Virus record (IMG/VR): IMGVR_UViG_3300050120_000170
Location: 1 to 64,000 of that record
Length of the DNA: 64,000 nt
Strand: one strand, 5' to 3'
Source: a virus
Both the position numbers and the translations under genes were made by a program. The notes under the pieces were generated by a model. The model ran no database searches and was not told the DNA's origin. It was given only the letters and a program-made list of their open reading frames with translations. Below, piece after piece: positions 25,503-63,231 of this stretch (within the stretch, counting starts at the first letter, position 1; every line of letters begins with the position of its first letter).

Positions 25503-25503
25503 A

Positions 25504-43577: not shown

Positions 43578-43809
43578 AGTTGTTCCCCCTTGAGTTAGGC
43601 ATTTTCTACGAACGGTTAACTACGGGTAGAGTGCATATACCTGGGCCATGACCCAAGTCTAGGGGGTCCACAAAATAAATTTAGGTCCGTTATTCCCGTT
43701 TCGTTCTCGTGAAAAGGTCCGCTTAATCCGCTTACCAGGGTGGTTTTTTGCGGAACGATTAGGGAACGTGGTCCAGGAACCGAGGGGTGCCGCGAGAGTG
43801 GCTTGGTAA

Positions 43810-43991
43810 AGAATATCGTGGAAAATCAATAGATGTGGGTCCGCTCTCCTACATATCAGAAAAAGGATAACGGATTTTTGATGGAGGTGAAAAGTGTATT
43901 TATACCGGGGGGTTAAGGTATGCAGGTCCGCTATACCCCAAAGTAGGCCTAGCGCGCGCGTATCCGTACCTCCGCGTAAGGCGCGGGCGAC
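43810..43991 (+). repeat. 182-bp control-region block, copy B (partner at 10264-10444)
   Basis: See copy A. Same orientation, between the leftward operon and the NusG-like gene. Confidence 0.85.
43833..43916 (+). CDS. 27-codon micro-ORF inside repeat copy B (speculative)
   Basis: MWVRSPTYQKKDNGFLMEVKSVFIPGG, preceded by GTG GAA AAT CAA TAG. Same length and frame as copy A despite a diverged middle. Confidence 0.3.
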   Translation: MWVRSPTYQKKDNGFLMEVKSVFIPGG

Positions 43992-44089
43992 AATTGCTGG
44001 GGTACCTGACTGATGGGGCCGGGGGCTTGCCTTTGTTTTTGAGATCGGTTAGGAATTGCCCCTCATCAACCGAGGGAGCTGAACTGGGA

Positions 44090-44572
44090 ATGTGGATGGT
44101 CACGACCTTACAACCTGGAGGTTTGACCAAGGCGCAGGACAACCTGAAGGCTCAGTCATTTGAGCCCTACGCCCCCCGGTTCTTTGGAGACTTCGGAAAA
44201 CCAGAATTTCTATTTCCAGGCTATCTGCTAGTCAAGTTCCAGGCCGAATGGGGTCCAATCCGGAGCACGCGTGGGATCGCGAATGTGCTCATGGAGGGGC
44301 TCCGGCCTGGCTTGATTAAGGATGAAGAAGTTGACCGTTGGAAGGACGCCGAGGCCCCGGACGGGCTGATCAGGCTCCCCCGCGTGCTGACCCAGCCGCG
44401 TTTCCGGAACGGGCAGCGCCTACGTTTAGTCAACGGCTCCCTCGCCGGGAACCGAGGCTCCACAGTCATATACCAGAATCAAGAACCCCAGGAGCGGTGC
44501 GCAGTGCTCATGCGCCTTCTTGGGAAGCAGCTGAGCGTCGTGGTGCGTGAGGAGGACCTGGTAGCCCTCTAA
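44090..44572 (+). CDS. NusG/RfaH-family transcription antitermination factor
   Basis: Start moved to MWMVTT. NGN-like W-V..A...L..FEPYAP..LFPGYLLVKF..IRSTRGI, plus a KOW-like FRNGQRLRLVNGSLAG segment. Confidence 0.65.
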   Translation: MWMVTTLQPGGLTKAQDNLKAQSFEPYAPRFFGDFGKPEFLFPGYLLVKFQAEWGPIRSTRGIANVLMEGLRPGLIKDEEVDRWKDAEAPDGLIRLPRVLTQPRFRNGQRLRLVNGSLAGNRGSTVIYQNQEPQERCAVLMRLLGKQLSVVVREEDLVAL

Positions 44573-44637
44573 CAACGGCCAAGGCCGGGCTACCCGTTCC
44601 CTCACTGTCATCGGTATAACCCCCAGTCCAGGGGTCC

Positions 44638-44649
44638 GGCGGTAGCTTG
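44638..44649 (+). promoter_or_regulatory. ops-type element GGCGGTAGCTTG
   Basis: Matches all 10 specified positions of the RfaH recruitment consensus GGCGGTAGnnTG on the non-template strand. Sits in the 99-nt gap after the NusG-like gene. Confidence 0.55.
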
Positions 44650-44671
44650 CCCAAACCAGAGAGAGGATGTC

Positions 44672-45055
44672 GTGGGTCACCAGCTTAACACCGAGATATC
44701 ATTCAAGGCCCGGGAGACCCTGAAGGCGGAGGCCGTCAAGCGGGGTCTCTCAGGGCGTACCCTGCTCGGCCTAATCCTGGAGAGGGTCATCCTGGTGGTG
44801 GGGGTGGATACCTTCATGGAGGATGAGGGCAAGGTGTACGAGGTCGCGAAGCGAGCCCCCCGGGGCAGCCGGACGCGGACCCGCAGCGATATCCGACACG
44901 TGACCCAGAGCCACGATCCGGATCGGCGGCTGCCGAGTGGCAGTGTGGTTCAGATGAGGCGGCGCAACTACGACAAGCCTATGCGCCACGCACCCAAGAC
45001 CAAGGCTGAGATGTACGAGGACCTCCGCCAGGCCGTCCTAAACACCACAGGCTGA
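44672..45055 (+). CDS. possible ribbon-helix-helix DNA-binding protein
   Basis: EISFKARETLKAEAVKRGLSGRTLLGLILERV has a strand-helix-helix pattern. GTG start. Lies directly before the small terminase. Confidence 0.4.
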   Translation: MGHQLNTEISFKARETLKAEAVKRGLSGRTLLGLILERVILVVGVDTFMEDEGKVYEVAKRAPRGSRTRTRSDIRHVTQSHDPDRRLPSGSVVQMRRRNYDKPMRHAPKTKAEMYEDLRQAVLNTTG

Positions 45056-45056
45056 T

Positions 45057-47077: not shown

Positions 47078-47295
47078 AAACAACCTTAGCTCTCCTTATT
47101 TTGTCCGCGTCAGCGGCTCATGCGGAGAAGCCTTGTGCGCCGTGTGCCACCTATGTGGGATCGTCCTATGGGTGGATACTGCCCTCTGGTTACCACGACA
47201 AGGACGGTCACTACGTCGCCTGCCCTCTTAGGGTCGCCGAGCCGTTCTGTGTAACTCCAGCGGATCGTGCCCTGCTGCGAGGCTTGTTACGTTGA
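47071..47295 (+). CDS. small secreted Cys-containing protein
   Basis: Signal peptide MVKTTLALLILSASAAHA. Confidence 0.45.
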   Translation: MVKTTLALLILSASAAHAEKPCAPCATYVGSSYGWILPSGYHDKDGHYVACPLRVAEPFCVTPADRALLRGLLR

Positions 47296-48875
47296 GCGTC
47301 CTCGGCACCAACCAATCCACGCTGAACGGCTCCCTCTCCGAGCTGCTGCGGGCGGACGAGATTGAGCCGGGCACCGAGCCCGGCTATCAGACCTGTAAGA
47401 CGATCTACACGCAGCACCCGCTCGGGGCCAAGATGGCCGAGAGCCCGATCAACCTGGCTCAGAGCCAGCAGCGTGAGATCACGATCCCGAACAGCCCCGA
47501 GGACCGCATCCGGGCGGCCTTCCTGGACGAGTGGGAGGCCATCGGCGCAGATGGTCATATCTTCAACACGATGCGCCTGGCTCGGGCCTACGGGATCGCG
47601 ACGATTGGTCTGCTGGCCGAGGGCGTCCCGGCGGACCGGCCCATTGACTACAAGAACCTGTCCAAGCTGACCATTGGGTTCAACAGCTGGGACCCGCTGA
47701 ACACTTCGGGTTCTCAGGTCCGGAACCAGGACCCCAACGCGATAGACTTCCAGAAGTCTCAGGGGGTCACGGTCCAGGGGACGACGTACCACCGCTCCCG
47801 CACCGTCGTCATGTTGAATGAGAGCCCGATCTATATCAGCTACACCGTGTCCGCGTTCGGGTACTTGGGCCGCTCGGTCTATCAGAGAGCCCTGTTCCCG
47901 CTGAAGTCCTTCGTTCAGTCCATGATCACGGACGACATGGTAACGAAAAAGGCCGGTGTACTGATCGCCTCGCTGAAGCAGGCCGGGTCCGTGATCAACA
48001 ACCTGATGGCTTCCATCTCCGGGGTGAAGCGAGCCCTCCTCAAGGAGGCGGAGACCAACAACGTCATCTCGATCAGCGCGACCGACAACGAGAAGATCGA
48101 AACGCTGAACATGCAGAACCTTGACGGCGCTTATAGCCTAGCGCGCAAGAACATTCTGGAGAATATCGCCGTCTCGGCGGACATGCCCGCGATGCTGCTC
48201 AACTCGGAGACCTTCGCGGAAGGGTTCGCGGACGGCTCCGAGGACGCCAAGGCCGTCGCCCGCTACATCGACCGGGTGCGGGTCCAGATGTCCCCGCTGT
48301 ACAAGTTCTTTGATAAGATCGTCATGTACCGGGCCTGGAACCCGGAGTTCTACAAGACGATCCAGAAGGAGTTCCCGGACACCTACGGCAGTGTGCCCTA
48401 CACCAAGGCGTTCTTTGACTGGACCAACTCCTTCTCCGCCCAGTGGCCGAACCTGCTCACCGAGCCGGACAGCGAGAAGGTTAAGGTGGACGACGTGAAG
48501 CTGAAGGCGGCCATCGCCATCGTGGAGAGCCTCCTCCCCGCGATGGACCCGGAGAACAAGGCCGTAGTCATCGAGTGGTTGGCGGACAACCTCAATGATA
48601 TGAAGTTCCTGTTCACCTCGCCGCTCACGCTGGACTACAAGGCCCTCGCTGAATACGTCCCCCCGGTTATGGCCATGGGCGGTGACAACGCCGAGGGCGG
48701 AGAGCCCAAGCCGAGGAACGAGGGGGAGAGCGAGGCCAAGGCGGATCGGGTCAGCCCGGCGATGTCCGCCTACAACGACGCGGTGGAGCGGCTCCAGAAG
48801 AAGCCTCGCCTGCGGTTGCTCCGGGGCGGCGGCTCTACGACGGTGCGTGGGATGCTGGAGCATCGAGCTAACTGA
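47292..48875 (+). CDS. portal protein
   Basis: 527 aa, directly downstream of the large terminase with an acidic C-terminus. Called from position and size. Confidence 0.75.
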   Translation: MSVLGTNQSTLNGSLSELLRADEIEPGTEPGYQTCKTIYTQHPLGAKMAESPINLAQSQQREITIPNSPEDRIRAAFLDEWEAIGADGHIFNTMRLARAYGIATIGLLAEGVPADRPIDYKNLSKLTIGFNSWDPLNTSGSQVRNQDPNAIDFQKSQGVTVQGTTYHRSRTVVMLNESPIYISYTVSAFGYLGRSVYQRALFPLKSFVQSMITDDMVTKKAGVLIASLKQAGSVINNLMASISGVKRALLKEAETNNVISISATDNEKIETLNMQNLDGAYSLARKNILENIAVSADMPAMLLNSETFAEGFADGSEDAKAVARYIDRVRVQMSPLYKFFDKIVMYRAWNPEFYKTIQKEFPDTYGSVPYTKAFFDWTNSFSAQWPNLLTEPDSEKVKVDDVKLKAAIAIVESLLPAMDPENKAVVIEWLADNLNDMKFLFTSPLTLDYKALAEYVPPVMAMGGDNAEGGEPKPRNEGESEAKADRVSPAMSAYNDAVERLQKKPRLRLLRGGGSTTVRGMLEHRAN

Positions 48876-49708
48876 TGGCGGGTCCGCAGCGCGAATACTT
48901 TGACACGATCACGGCGGCGGTCAACGACCTCGTAGAGCATGGTTTTGATTCGATGGATCGGGTCAACTACTGGACCGAGGAAGTGCGCAAGGCCGCCGTG
49001 CGGGCGTCCGCCTCTCCGGAGCGGCTCCAGCAGATGCTTTCGAACTACCTGACGCTGATCTACACGCGGCTGGTGGACCAGGGACAGATCGCGCGGTACC
49101 ATCCCGGGGTTGCGATGTTTACGGTGGATCGGGTTAGGCCGGAGCTGCGGGCGGAGTTGAACCGCCGCATACTGGCCTCGGCTGAACTGATCAAGCTGAA
49201 AAAGGCCGCCACCATAGAGAAGACCCTCCAGCGGTTCCAGGGCTGGTCTACCTCGTTGCCCAAGGGTCCGTCCCGAACCACGGACAAGCCCGAGGTGAAG
49301 GCTGATATTACCAAGGCCCTGAAGCAGCACACTTTCGAGGAGCGCCGGGTGCTCATCGACCAGGGCCACAAGCTGACCGCCTCGATCAACGAGGTAGTGG
49401 CGGCGGGCGGGGGGGCTATCGCTCTGGTGTGGCACTCGCACTGGCGTCAGGCCGGGTACAACTACCGTGAGGACCACAAGGAGCGGGATGGCGAGGTCTA
49501 CCTCCTCCGGAATAGCTGGGCCACTGAGCGAGGCCTCGTCAAGCCGGGTCCGGCTGGATGGTACGACAACGTGACCGCCGTGGCTGAAGAACCCTATTGC
49601 CGCTGCTATGCGCAGTACCTGTACAACCCTCGGGACCTCCCGGCGGAGATGTTAACCAAGAAGGGCGAGGAGCAACTTGCCCTCGCCCGCCGGGCTTTGG
49701 CGTCATGA
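48875..49708 (+). CDS. head morphogenesis protein (Mu F / SPP1 gp7-like)
   Basis: Follows the portal gene. WHSHWRQAGYNYREDHKERDGEVY resembles the conserved R..H...DG motif. Confidence 0.6.
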   Translation: MAGPQREYFDTITAAVNDLVEHGFDSMDRVNYWTEEVRKAAVRASASPERLQQMLSNYLTLIYTRLVDQGQIARYHPGVAMFTVDRVRPELRAELNRRILASAELIKLKKAATIEKTLQRFQGWSTSLPKGPSRTTDKPEVKADITKALKQHTFEERRVLIDQGHKLTASINEVVAAGGGAIALVWHSHWRQAGYNYREDHKERDGEVYLLRNSWATERGLVKPGPAGWYDNVTAVAEEPYCRCYAQYLYNPRDLPAEMLTKKGEEQLALARRALAS

Positions 49709-49908
49709 GCGTCTCTGAGCTGTGGGCGAGGTCCGAGCCCGAGGTCCGCAAGCCGGTGAAGGCGGTAGCGGACCCGGTGGAGAAGGCCAAGCTGATCCGG
49801 GAGTTCCAGGAACGGCTCGGGCTTCCGGTGGATAACAAAAAGTTCAACGAGTGGCTCACCCTGTGCGTGGGCTCCCAACAGATACAGAAGGGAATAGCGG
49901 ATGGCTGA
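49705..49908 (+). CDS. hypothetical protein
   Basis: 67 aa starting at the ATGA overlap. Confidence 0.45.
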   Translation: MSVSELWARSEPEVRKPVKAVADPVEKAKLIREFQERLGLPVDNKKFNEWLTLCVGSQQIQKGIADG

Positions 49909-50752
49909 TGAAAAGGACACCGATCCCCGCAAGGTGACCAAGTACAAGGTCTCCGGGACCTTTTACAATCCTTCCGCCAAGGAGAAGACGGACAAGTTTG
50001 AGGAAATGGTAGAAGGCGAGGAGATGTCCGAGGGAGCGGCCAACTCGGCGTTCTACCAGCAGCACTCCAAGAAGTACCCACACTACAAGATCAGCTCCAT
50101 CGAGAAGCAGGAAGCTGCGAAGGCGGACGCTCATGCGGACGTCACCCGCTACCGAGATTTTGTGATTGTCGAGAACAAGGGTTCTTTTGACTTGTATTAC
50201 GACAATATGACGTTCATCAAGAGGTTCAAGACTATGGCCGAGGCCAAGGCTAAGGCGGATCATATCCTTGGTGGTTCTCGGAAGGACGGCGACACCGATA
50301 CCCAGCGAAGGGCTGATGGTGCCGGCACGAGAGACGAAGGGGCCTCGGCGCAGAAGGCCGGGAAGTCTCGTTCAGATAATCCGTATCCCGTGGGATCAGT
50401 CTCGGCTCGTTCTTGGAACAACGGGTACAGTGAAGCTGAGAACTCGAAGAAGGACGGTGACAAGGGCGTCCCGCAGACCGACACCCAGCGCGCGGGCAAG
50501 CGGATGGACGCCGAGGTGCTGGACAAGGTCGCCGACACCGTCGCCCGGATCGCGGACCGCTTCGGAGCCTACGTGGACCGGGAGATGTGCCGGATGGATG
50601 CTGAGGTGGAGAAGACCTTCAAGGTGTTCATAAAGATCAAGGATAAGGAGCGTGAGGTGTACCAAAAGGCGGCCTCCGCCGAAGAAGCTATCAAGAAGGT
50701 GAAGGAAACACTTTCTGGTGAAGAGAAGCGTTGGGCCTCGGTGTTCGTTTGA
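49901..50752 (+). CDS. Lys/Asp-rich protein with Rmf/CrpP-like motif
   Basis: GASAQKAGKSRSDNPYPVGSVSARSWNNGY resembles the G..A..G....NPY.......W..G(W/Y) motif. Lower GC than its surroundings. Confidence 0.4.
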   Translation: MADEKDTDPRKVTKYKVSGTFYNPSAKEKTDKFEEMVEGEEMSEGAANSAFYQQHSKKYPHYKISSIEKQEAAKADAHADVTRYRDFVIVENKGSFDLYYDNMTFIKRFKTMAEAKAKADHILGGSRKDGDTDTQRRADGAGTRDEGASAQKAGKSRSDNPYPVGSVSARSWNNGYSEAENSKKDGDKGVPQTDTQRAGKRMDAEVLDKVADTVARIADRFGAYVDREMCRMDAEVEKTFKVFIKIKDKEREVYQKAASAEEAIKKVKETLSGEEKRWASVFV

Positions 50753-52641
50753 GCGGCCCCCTCTCTCCCATCATCACGGCAGCCGGCATCGCGTTTATCG
50801 CCGGCAAGTCCGGGGTCCCAATCCAGGACCGGCTGGTGCTGTTCCTCCAGCGATCAGGTGAGGGTGACCACGCGGGCGAATGGTGTTTGCCCGGCGGCAA
50901 GCTGGAGGATGGAGAGACCGCGAAGGAGGCCGCCCGCCGCGAATGTCGTGAGGAGACGGGCGTGGCTCCGAAGGGCGAGTTGTTCCTGCTCACCCGTACC
51001 AAAAAGGTTTACGAGGTCGCCGTCCCCACGGCGCCAGATGGCACGGCGGCGGCTGCGCCTCCTCCCTTGAGTCCCGCCGTGCCGCTGGGCCCCGTCATCG
51101 ACTTCACGACCTACGCCCAGAAGATTGAAGCCCCATTCGAGGTCAAGCTGGACGGCGAGCATACGGCCTACACCTGGGCTCCGGCTAACCGGCCTCCCCA
51201 GCCGCTCCACCCGGGCGTTGCCATCTCGCTCGCCCGGCTCTCGATGAATGAACTGGATATCGCCGAGGCGATGGTCCGGGGTGATCTTCTCTCGCCACAG
51301 TACCACCACAATATGGCGATGTTCGATATGCGCATCACCGGGACCGGGATGGCCTACCGCCGGGGCATCAAGGAGTACGTGTTCCGCAAGCCGGAGATTT
51401 ACCTCAACGACACGTTCCTGAAGCGGTGTAACGGGCTCAACGTGATCCTGGAGCACCCCGAGAAGGCCACCTTGGACAGCAAGGAGTTCGGCGACCGGAT
51501 CGTGGGCAACATATTCGTCCCCTACATCAAGGGTGACGAGGTATGGGGCATCGCAAAAGTTTACGACGACACAACTATCAGGATGCTGGAGACAGGTCAA
51601 CTCTCCACCTCCCCGTCAGTTGTGTTTCGAGACCCCAAGACCACGAACAGCAAGATCACCTTAGACGGTGGGGAGACTGTTCTGATCGAGGGTGATCCTA
51701 ACCTTTTGGACCATCTCGCCATCTGTCCAAAGGGAGTTTGGGATAAGGGCGGGGAGCCGAGAGGCATTGAGTTTGAAACCAGAAAGGACGACGACATGAC
51801 CCCCGAAGAACAGGCTGCTGCCGACAAGGCCAAGAAGGACGCCGAGATTGCAGCGGCGGACAAGGCCCGGAAGGACGCCGAGGAGAAGGAAGCCAAGGAG
51901 AAGGCTGACGCAGAACGCGCCAAGGCGGACGCCGAGGCCGGTCAGAAGCTGGACAAGCTTCTGACCTGCGTTGACTCGCTGGCTGGGCGTATGGACGCCT
52001 GGGACGCGAAGGAGAAGGCCAAGGCCGATGCCGAGGCGGAGGAGAAGCGCAAGGCGGGTGATCCGGATCAGGTCGCTGCCGACAAGGCCAAGAAGGACGC
52101 CGAGGCGGAGAAGGCGGACAAGGCCCGGAAGGACGCCGAGGAGAAGGAGAAGGCGGACCGCGCTAGGGCGGACGCTGAGACCCGGGACAGCATCCAGAAG
52201 CTGGCCGATGCAATCCCCAAGCCGATGTCGGATGACGAGCTGAACGCCATGGCTGACGCTCAGTCGCGTGCGGACAGCATCTGGTCCACCTTCGGCAAGT
52301 CCGCCCCCCGGCCCCTGCCCGGTGAGAACCTTCTCCAGTACCGTCGCCGCAATGCGTCGGCACTCAAGGTCCACAGCCCGGCCTACAAGGACGTGGACCT
52401 CTCGGCGATTGCGGACGATGACAACGGCCTCAAGATGTTCGAGGCGGTGGAGAAGGTCATCTATGCCGACGCGGAGCGCGCAGGCAATTCTCCGGCGGAT
52501 GTGCCGGTGGATACCCTCATGGAGACACGTAGGCCGGACGTTACTGGCCGCCAGGTCTCTACCTTCCGTGGTCAGCCGAGGGCCTGGATGGATGGTTTCT
52601 CGGGTCACCGCCGCCGCCTCACCGGCATCCGTAACCGCTAA
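50731..52641 (+). CDS. Nudix hydrolase fused to prohead scaffold/protease-like (DUF2213-like) and coiled-coil domains
   Basis: Complete Nudix box GGKLEDGETAKEAARRECREETGV. The central domain is LNVILEHPEK..IVGNIFVPYIKGDEVWGIAKVYD. There is a long KAKKDAE-type coiled coil. The start could instead be the TTG at 50749. Confidence 0.6.
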   Translation: MGLGVRLSGPLSPIITAAGIAFIAGKSGVPIQDRLVLFLQRSGEGDHAGEWCLPGGKLEDGETAKEAARRECREETGVAPKGELFLLTRTKKVYEVAVPTAPDGTAAAAPPPLSPAVPLGPVIDFTTYAQKIEAPFEVKLDGEHTAYTWAPANRPPQPLHPGVAISLARLSMNELDIAEAMVRGDLLSPQYHHNMAMFDMRITGTGMAYRRGIKEYVFRKPEIYLNDTFLKRCNGLNVILEHPEKATLDSKEFGDRIVGNIFVPYIKGDEVWGIAKVYDDTTIRMLETGQLSTSPSVVFRDPKTTNSKITLDGGETVLIEGDPNLLDHLAICPKGVWDKGGEPRGIEFETRKDDDMTPEEQAAADKAKKDAEIAAADKARKDAEEKEAKEKADAERAKADAEAGQKLDKLLTCVDSLAGRMDAWDAKEKAKADAEAEEKRKAGDPDQVAADKAKKDAEAEKADKARKDAEEKEKADRARADAETRDSIQKLADAIPKPMSDDELNAMADAQSRADSIWSTFGKSAPRPLPGENLLQYRRRNASALKVHSPAYKDVDLSAIADDDNGLKMFEAVEKVIYADAERAGNSPADVPVDTLMETRRPDVTGRQVSTFRGQPRAWMDGFSGHRRRLTGIRNR

Positions 52642-52699
52642 CCACAGCCACCCACCCGGGGCTTAATCGCCTCAGCGGCCTGTAGCAAGGAAAGACCAA

Positions 52700-53578
52700 A
52701 TGTCCATCGCTTTCAATCCGTCCGTTACGACCAATGCGGGCGGTACCTTCAATGTTACCACCGAGGGCTACATCCAGGGCACCGCCCTGAATGATCCCGC
52801 GATCCGGAACCAGCTGGCCGGGGGCATTCTCGCCTCCAGCGAGACCCTCCCCATGTGGGGTGGTGTTGGTATCTCGGAGAACGTCCCCACCCCGGGCACG
52901 AACGGTTCGCCGCTCGCTTCCCTGGGTCCCACGCTCGTTCGTGCCAGCCAGATTGCCGTGTCCGGTTCTCCGGCGGCGGGCGACCTCACCGGCTTCTCGG
53001 TGTTTGACCAGGATCACTCCATGGTCACGACCCCGCAGAGCCCGGTACCATCAGCCGGCAACGGCATGGGTGTCAACTTCTACCGGCTCGGATCGGGTGC
53101 CCGCATCGCGGTCGCTATTGACCCGGCCCTGGTGGACCTGGAGGGTAACATCATTACCCAATTGGTCTCCTGGGACTTCGTCAACCAGCGTCTCGTTCCC
53201 TACGAGGCGGCAGAGGCTCAGATTGCGATTACGTCGCAGACCTGGGCTGGCGGCGTGGTTACGGTCGTTACCACCACGGCTCATAACCTGGCGGTGGGTG
53301 ACGACGCCAACATCTCGGGTGCGGTTCCGGCGGGTTACAACGGTTCAGTGACCGTCGTATCCACGGCGGACAATACCCACTTCACCTACGCCCTGGCGGC
53401 GGAGCCGGGCGGTGTTTCTCCGGCGACGACCCCGGGTGTCATCCTCAAGGGCGGCGGAGCCCTCCCCGTCCGCATTATGGACGTCAACATCGGTGGCTCG
53501 ATGACAGTTGTCTACAGTGCCACCACCGGCTTTGTAACGTGGAACCGTTCGGGCTCCACGGCCATCATCCTGATCTGA
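52700..53578 (+). CDS. virion structural protein carrying the shared 61-aa domain (head-associated)
   Basis: AAGGAAAGA SD. Lies between the scaffold and major capsid genes. Domain at 53228-53410. Confidence 0.55.
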   Translation: MSIAFNPSVTTNAGGTFNVTTEGYIQGTALNDPAIRNQLAGGILASSETLPMWGGVGISENVPTPGTNGSPLASLGPTLVRASQIAVSGSPAAGDLTGFSVFDQDHSMVTTPQSPVPSAGNGMGVNFYRLGSGARIAVAIDPALVDLEGNIITQLVSWDFVNQRLVPYEAAEAQIAITSQTWAGGVVTVVTTTAHNLAVGDDANISGAVPAGYNGSVTVVSTADNTHFTYALAAEPGGVSPATTPGVILKGGGALPVRIMDVNIGGSMTVVYSATTGFVTWNRSGSTAIILI

Positions 53579-53627
53579 TCGCCCTAGTCTGGCGTCACGA
53601 CAAAACCTGATAAGGAGAAACTAGACT

Positions 53628-54650
53628 ATGGCAAACCTTGCCGCCTCGTTTGTGACGGTCAATCCGTCCTATATCGCTCCGGACATCATCCTGCCCTACT
53701 CGCAGGCGTCCGGGGCGTTTGAAACCGTTGCCGATGGGCAGCCGCTTGCGCGGCTCTCCGAGGGCGACCTCTATGCTTACATCAAGCGCATGGACGTGCG
53801 CACGAAGGTCGCGGCAGGGCAGTCAGCCTACAACCTGCTCCCGTCGATCAGCACCACGATGTCCATGATCAGCACCCCCTCCTATCTCCTCCGCGTCCGT
53901 GGCGAATACGACCACCACGACACGGCGGCGATGGGACGTTGGGGCGTGTCGATTGTCGAGGCCCAGCGCCTCGGCATGCGCCAGGGACACTTCCAGCTCG
54001 CCCGAGCGGCGCTGCTGTACGGGTTCCAGCCGGCAAACGGCGAGGGCCTCCTGAATACCCAGGGTGCCACCGCCGTCAATCTCCCGCCGGACAGCAACGC
54101 GCACGACACGGTGGTAACCTACGATCCGGGCCAGATGGGCGTGTTCCTTCTGACCCAGTTCTCGGCGCTGAAGACCCGGACCAACCAGCTCGGGATCGGC
54201 CACAAGTTCGTCATCCTCGGACCGCAGCGCGTTCTCGGGGCGTTTGAATACCAGAACATTGTTCAGGTCACCTCGTTCCAGCGCGCAGGTGCCGGTTCAA
54301 CCTCCACCGCCGGTATGGTGAAGGACGTTCTGGAAATGAACGACGACGAGATTGTCTGGGCCTACGACGACACCCTGATCGGCAAGGGTGCCGGCGGGAA
54401 CGACGCGGTGATCATCGTGATGCCCGAGGTGAAGAAGCCCAACGGCGGAAAGATCAACACCAACGAGTTCGCCAAGTTGGCGCCGGGCATGGAAGCCTGC
54501 ACGCTGATGTACTGCGATATGGCTGCCCCTCGGGAAATCCCGACACCGCTGCCGGGTGGTGCCATTGACGTTCTGTCCGAATGGCGTATCACCTCGGGTT
54601 GGGGCGTTCGCCCCGAGGCGATCACCATTATCTCGATGCAATACCAGTAA
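53628..54650 (+). CDS. major capsid protein
   Basis: 340 aa, strong AAGGAGA SD, downstream of the scaffold, followed by a hairpin. Called from position and size, compatible with an HK97 fold. Confidence 0.7.
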   Translation: MANLAASFVTVNPSYIAPDIILPYSQASGAFETVADGQPLARLSEGDLYAYIKRMDVRTKVAAGQSAYNLLPSISTTMSMISTPSYLLRVRGEYDHHDTAAMGRWGVSIVEAQRLGMRQGHFQLARAALLYGFQPANGEGLLNTQGATAVNLPPDSNAHDTVVTYDPGQMGVFLLTQFSALKTRTNQLGIGHKFVILGPQRVLGAFEYQNIVQVTSFQRAGAGSTSTAGMVKDVLEMNDDEIVWAYDDTLIGKGAGGNDAVIIVMPEVKKPNGGKINTNEFAKLAPGMEACTLMYCDMAAPREIPTPLPGGAIDVLSEWRITSGWGVRPEAITIISMQYQ

Positions 54651-54667
54651 GCACCGAGAGAACTCTA

Positions 54668-54697
54668 CGGCCCGGGGGAGACCTCCTCGGGCCGGTT
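54668..54697 (+). terminator. GC-rich hairpin after capsid gene (attenuator or terminator)
   Basis: CGGCCCG..CGGGCCG core stem with extended pairing. Only a weak T-tract. Confidence 0.45.
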
Positions 54698-54726
54698 CCT
54701 CTGAAAATCAAGGGAGACTACCCTCT

Positions 54727-55281
54727 ATGACTAAGATGTACGTTGCCAACTGTACGAACCAGGTTCAGCAGTTCGTCTACCGGCTGCCGGAAATCCCGGC
54801 CCCTCGTTCGCAGACCATTGATATCGGTCGCCAGGTTCTCCTCTCGGGAGAACTCACCACCAAGGATATCGAGGCGATCATCAAGCAGCATTCCAAGTAC
54901 GGCTTCAAGTCCGTCCAAGAGGTGGAGCAGAAGTCCAACGCGGGCGAGCGTCCGTTTGTCGGGCTCGTCTACTCGCTGGACAAGTATATCAATGTCGAGA
55001 AGATCAAGCGGGTTCTCCTGCTTAACCACAACGTGTTGATCCTCCGGGGTAGTCAACAGCGGAAGGCCGCCGCCGTCGCCGCCAGCGATGCGATCAACCA
55101 GCAGACCGAGGGCACACCCCTCGCCCTGAAGGCTCTGGAACTCCAGGCCGAAGAAATGGCCGACAACAAGAACCCGAACCCCGAGTTCAACGAGGGTGTG
55201 CGGGTCTCTTCAGAGGAGACGCCCACCGAGACAACGGGACGCAATCGTAAGTCCCGCGCCTCCCGCGCCTCCGAGGCATAG
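54727..55281 (+). CDS. virion-associated protein, unknown function
   Basis: Start moved to MTKMYVANC (GGGAGA SD). Confidence 0.5.
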   Translation: MTKMYVANCTNQVQQFVYRLPEIPAPRSQTIDIGRQVLLSGELTTKDIEAIIKQHSKYGFKSVQEVEQKSNAGERPFVGLVYSLDKYINVEKIKRVLLLNHNVLILRGSQQRKAAAVAASDAINQQTEGTPLALKALELQAEEMADNKNPNPEFNEGVRVSSEETPTETTGRNRKSRASRASEA

Positions 55282-55286
55282 CGACG

Positions 55287-55763
55287 ATGGGCCAGGGACC
55301 AACTCAGGCGGGCTTCAATAGCTTTGTTCAGCAGCAGATGGGGATCGCAACGGCGGTGTTGCCCGTTGACTCCATCTACCTCGTCTGGGCTTACCAGCAG
55401 TCCCTGGCCCTCGTTAATCAAATGATAGCTACGGCTTCCTCGGTGATGTACCTGGTTGCCGTGTACAACCTCGCCGGGGCGATCCTCCTCGATATCGCCC
55501 AGGATGTTGCTAACGCACCTCCGGTGACCGGCTCCAAGCCCCCTCAGCCCTTCTTCGCGTACACCCGAACGCGGCTAAACCTCAATTCATTCGTGACCGG
55601 GGTTATCTCGTCCACTTCGGACGAGGGCACCTCTGAGTCCCTGGTCGTCCCTGACCAGCTGAAGAACCTCACTATTGCGGACCTCCAGCTGGCCAAGACG
55701 CCCTGGGGTCAGCGATATCTCGGCATTGCCCAGTCCGTAGGTTCGGATTGGGGCATGAGCTAG
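55287..55763 (+). CDS. head-tail connector-region protein
   Basis: 158-aa ORF, called from its position in the module. Confidence 0.45.
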   Translation: MGQGPTQAGFNSFVQQQMGIATAVLPVDSIYLVWAYQQSLALVNQMIATASSVMYLVAVYNLAGAILLDIAQDVANAPPVTGSKPPQPFFAYTRTRLNLNSFVTGVISSTSDEGTSESLVVPDQLKNLTIADLQLAKTPWGQRYLGIAQSVGSDWGMS

Positions 55764-55776
55764 AAGGATAAAACCC

Positions 55777-56154
55777 ATGTCCCCCTTTCCCGGTCCCCCG
55801 GTTGTTTCCCCCGATGCCTCGGGTAACGTCCCAGTAGTTGTTCAAGGTAACGCTTCGGTAGTCATCCAAGGTCCCGGTGGGATTAACGGGTCTCCGCTCG
55901 GGTTTCAGAGCGAGGCCCTGACCAACGCGGCAGCGGTAGCGTTGCCCGCTATCCCGGCGGGCACGATCTACGCGACCGTGACCCCGAGCGTGGCCGCGAC
56001 CTACCGGGACGACGGGGTGGCCCCTACGTCCACGGTTGGTGTGCCGATGAACGCTGGGCAGTCCTATACGTTCTCGGGTCCCCAACTGGCTACGATCAAG
56101 TTCATTGCCGTGGGGGTCACGGCGGGGACCCTCAACGCCTCTTACTACAACTAA
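55777..56154 (+). CDS. head-tail connector-region protein
   Basis: 125-aa ORF. Confidence 0.45.
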   Translation: MSPFPGPPVVSPDASGNVPVVVQGNASVVIQGPGGINGSPLGFQSEALTNAAAVALPAIPAGTIYATVTPSVAATYRDDGVAPTSTVGVPMNAGQSYTFSGPQLATIKFIAVGVTAGTLNASYYN

Positions 56155-56567
56155 TGAAGCTTCACCTCGGGGTCATTGACTTCCCGTACACTTACGGGGA
56201 CAAGGCAATGACCACAGGCGACGTGGCCGTGATCCTAGAGGACAAATACGAGATCATGGGGACCTACTGGGAGAAGCATGGCCAGGAGGGGGCGGACGCC
56301 CTCGCCGAGGGCATGGCCGGGACCCTGGAGAGCCTCCTGATGGGGGCTCCCCCTACCCAGGACCCGTTCGGGACGGGAACGAGCAAGATTGAGGACGGCT
56401 TCAGGAAGTTCCTGGACGCCAGGGAGATGGACGGGATTGAGGGTATCCCGACGCAGGCCTCCCTAGACGGCGTGAACTCCCGGCTCAAGAAGCAGAGCGG
56501 GGATCAGCGTCCCTCGTTCATCGACGGCGGCCTGTACCAATCCAGCTTCAAGGCGTGGGTGAAGTAA
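56154..56567 (+). CDS. head-tail connector-region protein
   Basis: 137-aa ORF with a TAATG overlap. Confidence 0.45.
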   Translation: MKLHLGVIDFPYTYGDKAMTTGDVAVILEDKYEIMGTYWEKHGQEGADALAEGMAGTLESLLMGAPPTQDPFGTGTSKIEDGFRKFLDAREMDGIEGIPTQASLDGVNSRLKKQSGDQRPSFIDGGLYQSSFKAWVK

Positions 56568-56568
56568 A

Positions 56569-57765
56569 ATGCCCACCCTAGACGAGGTGATGGGGGCCAA
56601 GACTAGCTTCGCAGCGGACGCGGCCACCGGGGTCCAGGTTCTGTCCGACATGGGCAATGTCGTTTTTGACCTCTACCACCGGACCGTCCTCCCGCTGGAC
56701 GGTTACGTGTTTTGGGTTCAGGACGCGGACGCCGAGACTTCAATCACGGTCTCCGGGTCCCTTCACTATGACACGGACTTCCGGCAGGACGAGAGCAACA
56801 ACTATGCGGCCTCCCGCTGCGTCTTCACGTCCCTAACCGAGGTCAACGACCTCCGCGACGTGGGACCGAATGAGTGTTACATCGCCACACAGGGCAACCT
56901 CGTGTTCGCGTTCTCGTCTCGGGGCTACTTCTACAAGAAGGTTGACCTGTACCACTATCGGGGGTTCGCGACATACAACGACGTTCTGACCCAGGTCGTC
57001 CCGGCGGGAACGAACCTGCACGCGGACGAGGTTATTGTCTCCAACAGCCTCCCTATCTGGCTCTCCTTCAACAGTTACGTGGCAGGCTACGGGTTCACGA
57101 CCTCGGGCGTGGCCTCCTATCCATCCTTCCTCGTTCCGGACAACGAGGAGCCACCGTATGCTGCGGTGCACATCCTCCCGGAAACAACTCAGGCCCTCGG
57201 CGGTGCCCCCCGGCTAACGACTGCCCCGGCGGCCCTTGTCCTGACATCCCTGGCATGGGCCGGGGGGATCGTGACGGCGACCACGGCAGCGCCGCACGGA
57301 ATTACTACTCCGGCGGCCTTGATCACGATAGCAGGAGCGGTTCCGGCGGGTTACAACGGCACGGTGGCCGCGAAGATTACGGGGGCCTCCACGTTCACCT
57401 ACCCGCTGGCAGCTAACCCGGGGGCGGAGACGGCTCCGGGAACCTACAAGGCAGCCGGGACGACGGCGGGAACGAGCCATGATCAACTCGTCCAGGAGCG
57501 GGTTCGGGTCACGCTGACTGGACTCAACAACGAACAGGCCCTGAACTTTATTGACTTCGTCAATCAGTTCACGCTGGATAACCCGGGTGTGCTCGGGGTT
57601 ATGAACCAGCCGGTTCCTCGGGACGAGAAGCGGACCCAGAACGAGCTGCGTGTCATTGGTCAGAAGAAGACCATAGAGTTTCAAGTTAATTACTATCAAA
57701 GCGCCGTCTTCGATATAGCCCAGAGGCTGATTGAGACGGTGAATATCAGCTTCACCCCTCAATAG
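56569..57765 (+). CDS. virion structural protein carrying the shared 61-aa domain
   Basis: 398 aa. Domain at 57241-57423. Confidence 0.5.
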   Translation: MPTLDEVMGAKTSFAADAATGVQVLSDMGNVVFDLYHRTVLPLDGYVFWVQDADAETSITVSGSLHYDTDFRQDESNNYAASRCVFTSLTEVNDLRDVGPNECYIATQGNLVFAFSSRGYFYKKVDLYHYRGFATYNDVLTQVVPAGTNLHADEVIVSNSLPIWLSFNSYVAGYGFTTSGVASYPSFLVPDNEEPPYAAVHILPETTQALGGAPRLTTAPAALVLTSLAWAGGIVTATTAAPHGITTPAALITIAGAVPAGYNGTVAAKITGASTFTYPLAANPGAETAPGTYKAAGTTAGTSHDQLVQERVRVTLTGLNNEQALNFIDFVNQFTLDNPGVLGVMNQPVPRDEKRTQNELRVIGQKKTIEFQVNYYQSAVFDIAQRLIETVNISFTPQ

Positions 57766-57779
57766 GAGCGCGGGACACC

Positions 57780-59162
57780 ATGGCTAACCCGATTGTTAAT
57801 GTAACTGTGAACGTCATCGCGGCTCCGGCACCGAACAATCTTCAGAAGAAGGGAGCCATCATCTCTCAGGGGGCCACGACCTTGGGGAATGGTAATACCA
57901 GTCTCATCACTCAGGTCGCGGACCTGACGGCGATTGCGGCGACCCCGAAGGCCCTCGCCTCGATTGCCTGGGCTGGAAATCTGGCGACGGCAACCACGAC
58001 GGCTCCGCACGGTCTCACGAATGGGGACGTTATTCCGCTAACGATTGCGGGAGCGGTGCCCTCCGGGTATGACGGCTCGTTTCAGTGCACTATCACCGGG
58101 GCCTCCACGTTCACCTATCCGCTGGCGGTTAACCCGGGGACGACCCCCGCAAGCACCCCCGGGACCTATATCCCCACCGATAGCCTGGAGCTCAATACTC
58201 AGGTGGCTACGTTCTTTGCTCAAGGTTCCCAGCAGTCCGTCTACGTTCTGGAGCTGGGGGCCGGGACGGCGGTGGAGGGTATCGCGGCTCTGTCCGCCTA
58301 TATCACCGCAAACCCGGGTTGCTTCTATCGCTACCTGCTCCCGCGCGAATGGGACGCTGCGCAGACGCAGCTACTTCCGTTTATCTCGTTGTTCGAGAGC
58401 ACCACGGCTAAGACGTATTTTCATATTACGTCAACGCTGGCTACCTATACCGGCTACACCAACACGATGAAGTCTGCGGTCGTCTTTATCGAGAGCCCGA
58501 ACGCGAACCCCGCTGCCGAGTTCGGGGCGGCCTGGCCGTTCTGGAGAATGCTCAGCCAGAACCCGTCCGCGACGAATAAGGCTCAGCCGCTCGCTTTTGC
58601 CTACGGGTTCGGGGTCACGCCCTACCCGACAAAGGGCAACGCGGCTCTGTTCTCCACACTCAAGGCGGCTTACGTCAACTGGGCGGGCACCGGAGCCGAG
58701 GGCGGGATCAGCGACGTTATCCTGTTCTGGGGCACGACGATGGACGGGCGAGATGGCCTGTATTGGTACGCCATCGACTGGGCTCAGATCAATATTGATC
58801 TCAACATCTCGAATGCGGTCATCAACGGCTCAAACTCTCAGCCGCCGCTCGATTACAACCAGGACGGCATCAACTCTCTCCAGGCCGTGGCTGCGGCCAC
58901 TCTGGCGAGTGGCGTCTCGTTCGGCCTCCTTGTCGGAACCGTCAAGCAGACCGAGTTAAGCGGAGCAGCGTTTGACGTCAATTTCGCAAACGGGGTCTAT
59001 GCGGGTATGGCGGTGATCAATGCAATCCCGTTTGCTACCTATGTGGCTTCCAACCCGTCTGACTACCCGGACGGCATCTATGACGGCTTCTCAGCCGTGA
59101 TTACGACTGCCCGGGGCTTCGTGACCATCGGGTTCGTGATCAACGTCACCGACTTCGTTTAA
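57780..59162 (+). CDS. tail sheath-like protein carrying the shared 61-aa domain
   Basis: 460 aa, immediately upstream of the tube, chaperone and tape-measure genes. Domain at 57957-58139. Confidence 0.55.
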   Translation: MANPIVNVTVNVIAAPAPNNLQKKGAIISQGATTLGNGNTSLITQVADLTAIAATPKALASIAWAGNLATATTTAPHGLTNGDVIPLTIAGAVPSGYDGSFQCTITGASTFTYPLAVNPGTTPASTPGTYIPTDSLELNTQVATFFAQGSQQSVYVLELGAGTAVEGIAALSAYITANPGCFYRYLLPREWDAAQTQLLPFISLFESTTAKTYFHITSTLATYTGYTNTMKSAVVFIESPNANPAAEFGAAWPFWRMLSQNPSATNKAQPLAFAYGFGVTPYPTKGNAALFSTLKAAYVNWAGTGAEGGISDVILFWGTTMDGRDGLYWYAIDWAQINIDLNISNAVINGSNSQPPLDYNQDGINSLQAVAAATLASGVSFGLLVGTVKQTELSGAAFDVNFANGVYAGMAVINAIPFATYVASNPSDYPDGIYDGFSAVITTARGFVTIGFVINVTDFV

Positions 59163-59177
59163 CAAGGAGACTGATCT

Positions 59178-59618
59178 ATGGCTGGCAATCCGCTTGTTGC
59201 CCAGGGCGTCCTCAATCGTATCCGGGGATCGGTCACCTGGGATAGCTTTAACGCCCTCAACGTCACGGCGGCCTATTTGGGCCGGGAGGGCATCCGCCTC
59301 GCTATCGAGGGGGCGGCCTCCAAGCCCATCCCGACGATGACGGGCGTGGTACAGTCACCGGAGGCCTACCTCATGGTGTCTCTAACCCTGAACCTTCTGA
59401 AGTCTCAGGCCCTCGCCGATGCCTACAAGTCCCAGATTGAGCTCAGCTCTCTCCTGGGAGATTGTACCGTTCGCCCGGACTCCACGACGCTGTCCCCGTA
59501 CTCCCTGCTCAATTGCTCGATCAATCCGCCGAGCGATCAGGACTTCAGCGGCGAGAACGCGGGCTATGTAGTCAAGGCCACCGGGTATTACCTGGTCAAC
59601 GCAAACCTCTGGAACTAA
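59178..59618 (+). CDS. tail tube-like protein
   Basis: 146 aa with an AAGGAGA SD. Called from its position between the sheath-like and chaperone genes. Confidence 0.55.
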   Translation: MAGNPLVAQGVLNRIRGSVTWDSFNALNVTAAYLGREGIRLAIEGAASKPIPTMTGVVQSPEAYLMVSLTLNLLKSQALADAYKSQIELSSLLGDCTVRPDSTTLSPYSLLNCSINPPSDQDFSGENAGYVVKATGYYLVNANLWN

Positions 59619-59625
59619 AATCGTC

Positions 59626-60282
59626 ATGAAGATTGACCAGCAACTCAAGATCGTCCTCCCGCTCGATGTCGAGGGGACGCCCAAGGCGGAGGTCCCCGTC
59701 CTGGGGCCTGACGGGGCTCCGCTTGTCGTGGACGGTAAACCTGTAACCCAGTTGGTCCCGCAGCCGTATTACGTCTATTCGGCTCCGCTCTCCCGGAAAG
59801 TGTTCGAGCGTTACTGGCTAGTGTTCAGTAAAACCTTCGCGCAGATATACAACGAGGGCCTCCATGTCACCGCCGGTCCCCGGATCGCGGCGATGGCTAT
59901 GCGGGAGATTGCGGGCTCCCTCGGGCGGCTGGAGGGCATCGACGGGGTGGAGCACGGCGTATTTGACGAGATACGACGAACCACCACGATTGCTATGCCT
60001 ACCGATAAGGGCTGGCAGCAAGTCATCCTGGACGACGCAGTAAAGGGAGGCCTCATCAGTGACGAGGACTTCTCGGAGGTGGAAAACATCCTTGCTTTTT
60101 TTACTGTGATCTCAGCCATGCATCGCGCGGATCAACGCCGTCCGATCCTGGAGGGGGCTGCGAGACTTTGGGATGCGCAAATTATATCGTCAAGCTTTTC
60201 GGCGTTTATCGCTTCCTTGCCGAAGTTGACCGTGATCGCCAATTCTGGCGTGAGGATGGTGGGGTCGTCAGCACCATCCTAG
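59626..60282 (+). CDS. tail assembly chaperone (G-like)
   Basis: 218 aa directly before the tape measure gene. Contains the T TTT TTT heptamer in frame. Confidence 0.5.
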   Translation: MKIDQQLKIVLPLDVEGTPKAEVPVLGPDGAPLVVDGKPVTQLVPQPYYVYSAPLSRKVFERYWLVFSKTFAQIYNEGLHVTAGPRIAAMAMREIAGSLGRLEGIDGVEHGVFDEIRRTTTIAMPTDKGWQQVILDDAVKGGLISDEDFSEVENILAFFTVISAMHRADQRRPILEGAARLWDAQIISSSFSAFIASLPKLTVIANSGVRMVGSSAPS

Positions 60283-60407
60283 ACTGGGCTACCAATGAGG
60301 GCTTCCCGGCCTTCATGTCCCAGGTGGACGAGTTCAAGTACAGCTCCGCCCACCAGTATCGCCAACGCGATCTAATAACCCTCCTCCTCGCACTTAAAGG
60401 ACGCTAG
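60168..60407 (+). CDS. -1 frame extension ORF (GT-like frameshift product tail)
   Basis: Overlaps the chaperone gene in the -1 frame, which is open from 60063. Ends 1 nt before the tape-measure GTG. Confidence 0.4.
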   Translation: MGCANYIVKLFGVYRFLAEVDRDRQFWREDGGVVSTILDWATNEGFPAFMSQVDEFKYSSAHQYRQRDLITLLLALKGR

Positions 60408-62006: not shown

Positions 62007-62743
62007 GCCCTCCCCCCGGCCTCCTCGCATTCAAGCTATCGTTTGAGCTCTCCCCGATCATCCTGACCGGGGGGGCGGCCTCGTTTATCCCGGGTGGTAT
62101 GCTCCCGATTATTGCTCTGACCGAGGCGGCGGACTTCGTGACGGGTCTGCTCAGCGGGAACGTCAACGATGATCTGGATAGTTACTTCGCGCACTTCTAC
62201 CCGATGCCGGGCGGGAAGCTGGCGAATAACTCCATTGGCGAATACCCGTTTGCTAACCAGCAGGTCGCGGCAAACGCAATTATAGCCAATCCGCTGAATA
62301 TTTCAATGCGTATGGTTTGTCCTGCGAAGGGGGATGGGGGGTACGCCCTGAAGCTGGCGACGATGGTAGCCCTACAGGCGGTCATTGCGAACCATACCAA
62401 CTCGGGTGGGACGTTCACGGTGGCCACGCCATCGTACTACTACACGGACCTAATTCTGACCGGCCTAACGGACGTCACCAGCTCGGGCGCGAAGCAGCCC
62501 CAATCCGAGTGGCAGTGGGACTTCACCCAGCCTCTCTTGACCCAGGCGGCGGCGGACGCGGCCATGAACTCGATGATGAATAAGTTGAGTCAGGGGCTCC
62601 CGTCTACGGGGGCGACTTCAGGATTGGATACCACGGTGGGGGCTCCGAATACCCTGGCAACCTCTCAGGTGGCTCCCGTCGCCTCGAATACGGCGGGAAC
62701 CTCGGTGGCGTCTCAGTTGGCGGGCGGGGTGATCCCGGTATGA
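62003..62743 (+). CDS. tail/baseplate protein
   Basis: 246-aa ORF coupled to the tape measure gene. Confidence 0.5.
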   Translation: MSPPPGLLAFKLSFELSPIILTGGAASFIPGGMLPIIALTEAADFVTGLLSGNVNDDLDSYFAHFYPMPGGKLANNSIGEYPFANQQVAANAIIANPLNISMRMVCPAKGDGGYALKLATMVALQAVIANHTNSGGTFTVATPSYYYTDLILTGLTDVTSSGAKQPQSEWQWDFTQPLLTQAAADAAMNSMMNKLSQGLPSTGATSGLDTTVGAPNTLATSQVAPVASNTAGTSVASQLAGGVIPV

Positions 62744-63231
62744 CTACATACACGGACTTTCAGCCGTCCACTCAGCAGGTCTCCACGTTCCAGCCGACGT
62801 TGGATGGGGAGGTGTACGTCTGCACCCTTACCTGGAACCTATTTGGACAACGGTACTATATCAACTGCTCAGACCTCTCGGGCAACCTCATATTCTCACT
62901 CCCCCTAATCGGCTCCCCGGACGGCCTTGCCGTGGAAGCTATTACCTGGGATCAGAGCGTGGTTACCGTAAAGACGGCGGTGCCCCATGGGTACCGGGCG
63001 GGAGTCACAGTAAACCTGACGCTGGCCCAGACGGAACCCTCCGGGTATAGCGGTAACTTCAACATGCTCGTGATCAACGATACCGAGCTGACGTTCTCTC
63101 TCAGTAGTAATCCGGGCATTTGTACGGCTCCGGGGCTCCTGTTCGATAATATCAATATCGCAGGGGGTTATTTTACCACCAGCACTTTGGTATTCCGGAC
63201 TTCATCCTCCCAGTTTGAGGTGACGCCGTGA
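62740..63231 (+). CDS. baseplate-region protein carrying the shared 61-aa domain
   Basis: 163 aa. Domain at 62935-63117. Confidence 0.5.
   Translation: MTTYTDFQPSTQQVSTFQPTLDGEVYVCTLTWNLFGQRYYINCSDLSGNLIFSLPLIGSPDGLAVEAITWDQSVVTVKTAVPHGYRAGVTVNLTLAQTEPSGYSGNFNMLVINDTELTFSLSSNPGICTAPGLLFDNINIAGGYFTTSTLVFRTSSSQFEVTP

Follow-up and report, generated by a model that had tools for sequence, protein, structure and literature searches.

Phage late genes are controlled in the textbook cases by Q, N, put RNA or phage sigma factors, and the locus described here raises the question of whether a phage may also express its virion genes with an RfaH-type factor of its own, loaded at an ops element. The stretch of DNA analysed (positions 1-64,000 of IMG/VR record IMGVR_UViG_3300050120_000170; hereafter the window) contains, on the + strand, a gene for an RfaH-like protein of the NusG family (rfaH-like gene, 44090..44572) and, downstream of it, the ops element GGCGGTAGCTTG (44638-44649, + strand, non-template), both at the head of packaging and structural genes. 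This arrangement had been proposed in the original prediction to be an operon-specific factor brought by the phage together with its cognate loading site, and the proposal was supported, as far as computation reaches, by conservation, fold, linkage and co-variation of the site with the residue equivalent to RfaH Arg73. Judged by sequence, the phage RfaH-type paralog and its cis-linked cognate ops probably act as a processivity and anti-polarity factor for host RNA polymerase on the virion operon.

The ops element and its linkage to the rfaH-like gene

The element GGCGGTAGCTTG begins 66 nucleotides (nt) past the last base of the rfaH-like stop codon and lies within the 99-nt spacer between this gene and the following open reading frame (ORF). 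Both strands were scanned and this was the sole exact match to GGCGGTAGNNTG in 64 kb, so that the perfect ops-type element originally claimed at this distance from the stop codon stands and is unique in the window. The signal expected of a cognate ops, GGCGGTAGnnTG on the non-template strand of the operon leader, is present at 44638-44649. An expectation of 0.06 matches per strand had also been given; this figure is right for uniform composition, and dinucleotide-preserving shuffles gave 0.14 exact matches per window (both strands), with one or more matches in 12 of 100 shuffles. Matches with one mismatch were at chance level (6 found versus 5.1 expected). Taken alone, the single occurrence is suggestive but at most weakly significant, and the case therefore rests on conservation.

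Seven homologs of the window protein (45-55% identical) were obtained from metagenome assemblies and their contigs were fetched; the close clade comprises 10 fetched loci (L001-L010) with 8 distinct proteins. The gene order in all ten loci was rfaH-like gene, short ORF, small terminase gene (terS) and large terminase gene (terL), the short ORF being uncalled in three loci and detectable by tblastn in at least two of these. Exactly one exact GGCGGTAGNNTG was found per locus (10/10), on the coding strand and about 55-85 nt past the rfaH-like stop codon, and in the spacer alignment (mean column identity 60%) the wider block CGGCGGTAGCnTGC was invariant, which in the window corresponds to 44637-44650. 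A more distant locus (L031, the same as L112), whose rfaH-like protein is 32% and whose terminase is 56% identical to those of the window, also carried an exact ops (...CAGGGGCATCGGCGGTAGCCTGCC...), 73 nt past the gene and 13 nt before the terS start. The 12-mer, whose conservation in relatives had been named as a check, is thus exact and on the same strand and in the same place throughout the close clade and in L031. A chance match beside a NusG-family gene, with no functional link, would agree with the 12 of 100 window shuffles that gave an exact match; by the conservation data it is in practice excluded and its probability is negligible, since each relative has its single match on the same strand and at the same position even though the proteins have diverged by about 50%.

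Terminase relatives were gathered independently of the motif (80 viral loci and 80 metagenome loci). Among the 80 viral loci, 53 had at least 1500 nt upstream of terL, and three of the 53 had an rfaH-like gene; the sole exact ops upstream of terL in this set adjoined an rfaH-like gene, and none was found upstream of terL in the 50 viral loci without such a gene. The TerL search of the metagenome collection returned relatives of 49-57% identity only, the contig of the window and its close clade lying outside that collection; the sole further exact ops in this set (L179) lay inside an ATPase gene of an AT-rich phage and was taken as a chance match, because about 1.2 matches are expected in the similarly sized viral set.

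The site also followed the residue at RfaH position 73. Every protein with T-R-G at RfaH positions 72-74 (window clade, L031 and L115) had a CGGTAG core downstream of its gene; the proteins of L030/L111/L124, L102/L103/L170 and L171 had F, P or Y at position 73 and no CGGTAG downstream. Three lineages therefore have residue and site and three have neither, which is a small sample, and the direction of the co-variation is the one that would be predicted for a cognate protein-DNA pair. It is hard to reconcile with a host factor as the reader of the site or with a packaging site. In L115 (ODAK010014211.1, ~1440-1460), T-R-G and H20 are kept and there is no full ops; a reduced form, CCGGTAGTGTT, which consists of the hairpin core and T11 followed by a T-run, is located about 25 nt before terS and may be a variant recruitment signal. 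The Arg73-less genes of L030/L111/L124, L102/L103/L170 and L171 are also located upstream of homologous terminases and may use a different loading signal.

The contigs of L003, L005, L006, L007, L008 and L009 begin less than 200 nt upstream of the rfaH-like gene, where assemblies could be interrupted by a hypervariable region, or the genome could physically end immediately to the left of the gene. The contig starts, as a possible hint of a nearby genome end, would fit a different function of the conserved block, namely as a packaging site in the DNA (pac/cos, recognized by the small terminase), or as the operator or promoter element of another phage protein, to which the ops match would be coincidental. 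The block is situated just upstream of terS, a common place of pac/cos sites, and conservation extends beyond ops to TGTCnnCGGYAT and AGTCnAGGGG, the latter recurring in the upstream intergenic region. A packaging or operator site of this kind is nevertheless very unlikely to be the explanation: nine distinct lineages show no variation at any of the 10 specified ops positions and share them with the ops of E. coli and plasmids, the block is missing from phages that have homologous terminases (50-57% identical) and no rfaH-like gene, and loss of the block tracks loss of the RfaH DNA-contact residue and not a change of terminase.

The RfaH-like protein and its proposed loading at ops

The rfaH-like gene extends from an ATG at 44090 to a TAA at 44570-44572 and encodes 160 amino acids (aa). 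In the public gene call (P0001, 158 aa) the first two codons are missing and with them the family-invariant Trp2, and 44090 is therefore the better start. The NGN and KOW-like features first noted in this ORF were recovered by profile and structure searches. The NGN domain PF02357 was matched at residues 2-83 with 33.5 bits (Pfam cut-off 22.2), and a KOW-type C-terminal β-barrel was predicted with AlphaFold2 from two independent alignments and matched the RfaH/NusG C-terminal domain structures 2lcl, 2jvv and 6tf4; Pfam gave no separate KOW match for the C-terminal domain. The best NCBIfam model was RfaH (TIGR01955, positions 1-158 of 159, 68.2 bits), rival models scoring far lower (NusG 26, UpxY 21 and LoaP 14 bits), and the best PDB sequence matches were RfaH chains with end-to-end alignment. 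In the AlphaFold2 model from the 71-sequence alignment, the mean predicted local distance difference test score (pLDDT) was 88.9, with about 95 in the NGN domain and 80-87 in the five-strand C-terminal domain. The comparison with RfaH and NusG folds that had been suggested as a check gave as top Foldseek match 8phk_P, RfaH on the ops-paused elongation complex, with a probability of 1.0 to both RfaH and NusG structures, and the NGN domain was superposed on the RfaH:ops crystal structure 5ond with 2.9 Å over 93-94 aligned columns.

A search with the clade profile returned thousands of proteins, of which the nearest named ones are called RfaH by their sources and come from Pseudomonadota; proteobacteria also supply the closest cellular and plasmid relatives. 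Among the 1.84 billion representatives of a sequence library, three sequences of the phage clade scored 225-239 bits and the next protein 164 bits, which sets the clade apart, and the clade is small (three 50%-identity clusters). No relative of the factor was found among 50,697 GenBank phage records, in which NusG-family genes of any sort are rare. IMG/VR was searched with the single window protein, which gave nothing, and with the clade alignment, which gave only L010 and the distant L011/L012, the latter two without ops. The protein is a divergent and rare RfaH-like NusG paralog of the two-domain NusG family.

Four side chains of RfaH (K10, H20, R23 and R73) contact ops directly, the flipped-out T6 of ops is held in a pocket of H20, R23, Q24 and R73, and R73A abolishes RfaH recruitment (PMC5995543). 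The equivalents of RfaH K10, H20, R23, R73, Q24 and T72 in the window protein are Q8, N18, A21, R61, Q22 and T60. T72-R73-G74 and Q24 are kept in all ops-bearing proteins (window clade and L031), the corresponding residues in the window protein being T60-R61-G62 and Q22. At position 20 the ops-bearing proteins have N, or H in one member (P0003); at position 10 they have Q, or K (P0008) or R in single members; and at position 23 they have A or R (R in P0002, P0003 and P0005). The HTTT motif of RfaH is absent from the window protein. For the autoinhibition positions E48, I93 and F130, the candidates in the window protein are E39 (not conserved in the clade), V81 and Y128, and RfaH R138 is matched by R136.

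The presumed target of the factor was mapped on the + strand, where 44090-63231 is 92% coding with ORFs that overlap or nearly abut and minimal gaps. This densely packed gene map of about 19 kb, with genes from terminase to tail, upholds the packaging and structural operon of about 20 kb that had been claimed, with ops on its non-template strand. We infer pausing, loading, antitermination, exclusion of NusG and Rho, timing and use of the host polymerase by analogy. Host multisubunit RNA polymerase, reading rightward, would pause at ops T11 (44648); the pause is predicted at this base because ops fits the consensus pause (G at -10, pyrimidine at -1, G at +1), with E. coli ops as the model for the position (PMC5995543). 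The non-template GGCGGTAG would then fold, as in E. coli, into a small hairpin exposing G5 and T6, on which the phage protein would dock via Thr60-Arg61-Gly62 and Gln22 (RfaH T72-R73-G74 and Q24). Its NGN domain would clamp the polymerase, travel along with it and suppress pausing, and by excluding NusG the factor would block Rho-dependent termination and polarity over the roughly 19 kb that extend from terS to the tail genes. The target is presumed to be Rho-dependent polarity because intrinsic terminators are not above chance in the operon. As the gene is located upstream of ops, synthesis of the factor itself would be free of the signal and the distal virion genes would need it, a layout that may serve as a feed-forward delay and amplifier for late functions. 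That the operon genes are expressed late is an assumption based on gene content. The 10 largest early-region ORFs gave no phage RNA polymerase.

Several results weigh against this mechanism. The protein does not reach the equivalog cut-off of TIGR01955 (68.2 bits versus 144.5), so it was filed as RfaH-like and not as an RfaH ortholog, and it is only about 23% identical to E. coli RfaH. Three of the four side chains that contact ops directly are changed (K10 to Q, H20 to N and R23 to A). No sigma-70-like promoter was found in a consensus scan of 43400-45100, which covers the region upstream of the gene and that between gene and ops, and terminator-like sites within the operon were at chance level (19 versus 14.9 expected). 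Genes 3' of ops have ordinary Shine-Dalgarno sequences, so ribosome recruitment in the manner of RfaH is not obviously needed. The host may own an RfaH able to use the same site. Finally, it is the autoinhibited α-hairpin state of the C-terminal domain that makes E. coli RfaH depend on ops, and both AlphaFold2 runs (71 and 8 sequences) gave a β-barrel C-terminal domain with no sign of an α-hairpin. Autoinhibition of the phage factor is not supported by these models; AlphaFold2 is unreliable on fold switching (PMC11344769).

Some of these points would suit an explanation in which a host RfaH reads ops and the phage protein does another job, for example protecting all phage transcription from Rho as a general NusG mimic, or competing with host RfaH or NusG and displacing it. 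The site is the exact canonical consensus, which any host RfaH should recognize, the equivalents of K10, H20 and R23 are absent from the phage protein, and only the open β-barrel form is predicted, like that of NusG, which binds without a signal. We consider a host reader improbable, because among the terminase relatives ops occurs only beside an rfaH-like gene, the site is gone where the protein has lost Arg73, which is unexpected for a host reader, and the spacing and strand of gene and site are fixed throughout the clade.

Within the preferred reading, in which the phage protein itself is loaded at ops, a tentative and rather doubtful extension is that the clade uses RfaH/ops in place of a Q- or N-type late switch, the factor being a pared-down RfaH that is permanently open and ops-specific mainly through Arg73 and Gln24, without the K10, H20 and R23 contacts. 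If this were so, RfaH-family specificity would be possible without autoinhibition, and the clade, together with its Arg73-less and ops-less sister lineages, would form a natural series for how a NusG paralog gains or changes a DNA signal.

The virion operon and its flanking sequences

The first ORF 3' of ops (44672..45055, + strand, 127 aa) has a GTG start with GAGG 5 nt upstream. It was searched against Pfam, NCBIfam and PHROG and gave no family match; its C-terminal 50-65 residues or so are conserved in ORFs of 61-80 aa at the equivalent place in relatives, and its N-terminal 70 residues or so, which are specific to the window, resemble a ribbon-helix-helix DNA-binding motif by eye, with no family match. 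It is followed on the + strand by terS (45057-45701; PF03592, phrog_51), terL (45698-47077; phrog_2) and the remaining operon (47292..63231), in which PHROG searches identified portal, head morphogenesis protein, Nudix-domain protein, major-head-like protein, tail sheath, tape measure/transglycosylase and others. A 636-aa protein of the head module (50731-52641) combines an N-terminal Nudix hydrolase motif with a large phrog_6216 domain of unknown function, and the same arrangement was also called on the relative contig of P0007.

Within the spacer, a G+C-rich hairpin (CGGC-CAAG-GCCG, 44576..44587, + strand) is located just past the rfaH-like stop codon and has no T-run after it. A hairpin is present at the equivalent place in most relatives with different stems, for which the support is weak (3 predicted pairs with one compensatory change each). 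Upstream of ops, invariant alignment columns mark the block TGTCATCGGTAT (44606..44617, + strand; consensus TGTCnnCGGYAT), which is unique in the window at 0 mismatches, matches with 1 mismatch being at chance level. A potential 5-bp hairpin (ACCCC-CAGTCCA-GGGGT, 44619..44635, + strand), which contains AGTC(n)AGGGG, ends 2 nt before ops. All nine phage loci tested, among them the divergent L031, in which the sequence is different, had a hairpin of 3-5 bp ending 1-3 nt 5' of ops, and so did the waaQ leader of E. coli; individually these hairpins are not significant (z 0.0 to -2.6), and a role of the pre-ops hairpin in aiding the pause is speculative. No conserved RNA structure was detected in the spacer by RNAalifold (-9 kcal/mol, of which the covariation term is -0.6), and there was no Rfam match.

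Between the rfaH-like gene and a leftward cluster of small ORFs on the minus strand (39.5-43.6 kb, no known family) there is a divergent intergenic region of 512 bp (43578..44089), the presumed promoter/operator. Blocks in it that are conserved with L001 and L004 are the near-palindrome CTACGGGTAG (43620-43629) and AGTCTAGGGGGTCC (43656-43669), the latter followed by AAAATAAAT, so that the second conserved stretch covers 43656-43679. The AGTC(n)AGGGG(n)TCC block of this region recurs directly 5' of ops (44625-44637) and may be a shared promoter or operator element. AGTC(n)A(A/G)GGG was considered as a phage promoter and rejected, as four + strand copies were found versus about 2.5 expected and the copy at 20870 is inside an ORF; only the copies at 43656 and 44625 are intergenic and conserved. 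A promoter with TTGTCA-like and CATAGT-like hexamers, seen by eye, was also rejected because the hexamers are too close (12 nt) and CATAGT is absent from the window itself, and the idea of a T7-like promoter at ATAGTCAGGGG was dropped because the 10 largest early-region ORFs gave no single-subunit polymerase. Just before the rfaH-like start codon (44016-44045, + strand) there is a terminator-like hairpin with a T-run; this T-run is not conserved in L001 or L004, and GGGGCTTGCC and TCGGYTAGG nearby are conserved.

The window, with a G+C content of about 60% throughout, accounts for most of a contractile-tailed phage genome; P0001 is encoded on a public contig of 70,553 bp. By sequence comparison the phage is an uncultured lineage, as GenBank phages matched it at the DNA level only weakly, in the terminase, and had no protein related to the factor. 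A scan of GTDB genomes with the extended motif CARGGGNNCGGCGGTAGCNTGC gave 17 matches in unrelated phyla (about 9 expected by chance, an estimate), none near rfaH-like, terS, terL or portal genes, and therefore identified no prophage or host. No tRNA gene was found in a search of the window. Left of the minus-strand cluster, a rightward replication module encodes a family A DNA polymerase, an AEP primase, two UvrD-type helicases, a SNF2 helicase, a thymidylate-synthase-like protein and a topoisomerase. A 431-aa protein (25399-26694) gave only a partial thymidylate-synthase match (PF00303, 71 bits) and could be an enzyme of the pyrimidine hydroxymethylase type, and this would point to modified DNA. 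The window opens with a 762-aa protein (32-2320), possibly a tail fibre, that has the C-terminal glycine-rich domain PF21722; the virion module may accordingly extend beyond the window on the right and come round to this point on the 70.5-kb contig.

Relation to known systems

If the proposed loading is correct, a NusG-family factor recruited by a DNA hairpin in the transcription bubble would be a further class of phage late control, borrowed from the host toolkit for expressing foreign operons. The locus extends to a complete phage the picture of mobile elements (plasmids and tail-like particles) that carry a private antiterminator and its loading site, by which long operons could be expressed in whatever host is entered. 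The clade is a mutational series that could be of use in dissecting how ops is read, with an invariant ops, variable equivalents of K10, H20 and R23, and sister lineages without Arg73 and ops. The compact cassette of gene, 65-nt spacer and ops is also a candidate portable part for long synthetic operons.

RfaH/ops is a classic system, whose targets in E. coli are the waa, hly, kps and tra operons. E. coli RfaH is likewise a two-domain NusG paralog, is the best match of the window protein by sequence and fold and shares Q24, T72, R73 and G74 with it, and the E. coli signal is the identical 12 nt on the non-template strand, in an untranslated spacer before a long operon (waaQ leader, GGCGGTAGCGTGC). 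JUMPstart homology was considered and rejected, as the waaQ leader and the phage spacer did not align beyond ops and one base. The E. coli rfaH gene lies away from its several target operons, on which the protein acts in trans, whereas the phage gene is directly linked to a single site; E. coli RfaH has K10/H20/R23, the HTTT motif and the α-hairpin state, unlike the phage factor; and in the phage, unlike in the E. coli systems, the genes downstream carry Shine-Dalgarno sequences.

Linkage of factor and site is known from Serratia entomophila, in which the tightly linked distant RfaH homolog AnfA1 and the operator GGCGGTAGNNT head the pADAP afp operon for a contractile phage-tail-like particle, and ops sites also precede the Photorhabdus PVC operons (PMC6748792). 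The AnfA1/afp system, compared by description only, resembles the phage locus in having a linked RfaH homolog and site at the head of a long operon. Afp and PVC are, however, bacterial tail-derived toxin-delivery particles without capsid, packaging or replication genes, whereas the window belongs to a complete phage that encodes terminase, portal, head and sheath proteins and also has a DNA polymerase of its own. On IncX3 conjugative plasmids, conjugation requires PrfaH, whose gene carries an ops-like site in its leader (PMC11880322). Like ActX and TraB on other plasmids, PrfaH is an RfaH-like factor of a mobile element that is co-transcribed with the long operon it activates (PMC11880322; PMC7593976), and its structure (9ik0) was among the fold matches of the window protein. 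In the PrfaH system the ops-like site is located upstream of prfaH, in the promoter-proximal leader, whereas the phage site follows the gene; PrfaH acts on a type IV secretion/conjugation operon and not on virion genes; and the key DNA-contact residues reported differ from those of RfaH.

NusG paralogs as the first gene of their own operon are also represented by UpxY, TaA and NusG-family genes of alphaproteobacterial plasmids. On plasmids, the proteins closest to the window protein (about 30% identity) are encoded at the head of polysaccharide clusters, and on the Haematospirillum jordaniae plasmid NZ_CP014527.1 (L192 5001-5650) an exact GGCGGTAGCGTGCC is found about 155 nt past an rfaH-like gene and ahead of polysaccharide genes, that is, in the same gene-then-ops layout. 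The Haematospirillum rfaH-like gene is interrupted by a stop codon and annotated as two fragments. The targets of the polysaccharide-locus paralogs are cellular envelope genes, unlike those of the phage factor, on which the UpxY model scores 21 bits.

Among phage regulators, lambda Q loads at a sigma-dependent promoter-proximal pause via a site within the promoter. The role proposed for the phage factor is the same: it would be loaded where the DNA specifies a pause, close to the beginning of the late operon, and ride the polymerase through a very long unit; Q is an unrelated protein, whereas the phage factor is of the NusG family, and no promoter is evident next to the phage ops in the sigma-70-like scan of 43400-45100. 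PHROG 6386 ('transcription antiterminator'; annotated for instance in Nostoc phage Nsp-JY10 and Microcystis phage vB_MweS-yong2) also consists of phage-encoded NusG-family proteins, but the window protein matches it weakly (26.8 bits, residues 39-155), and in the one member analysed (L011/L012) ops is absent and the next gene encodes a ParB-methyltransferase. In the literature searched, no description of a phage-encoded RfaH with ops at a virion operon was found, the nearest being a passing mention of rfaH-like genes on prophages (PMC7593976). The kind of system is thus already known from RfaH/ops, AnfA1 and PrfaH; what is new is the setting, a complete phage in which the module heads the packaging and virion operon.

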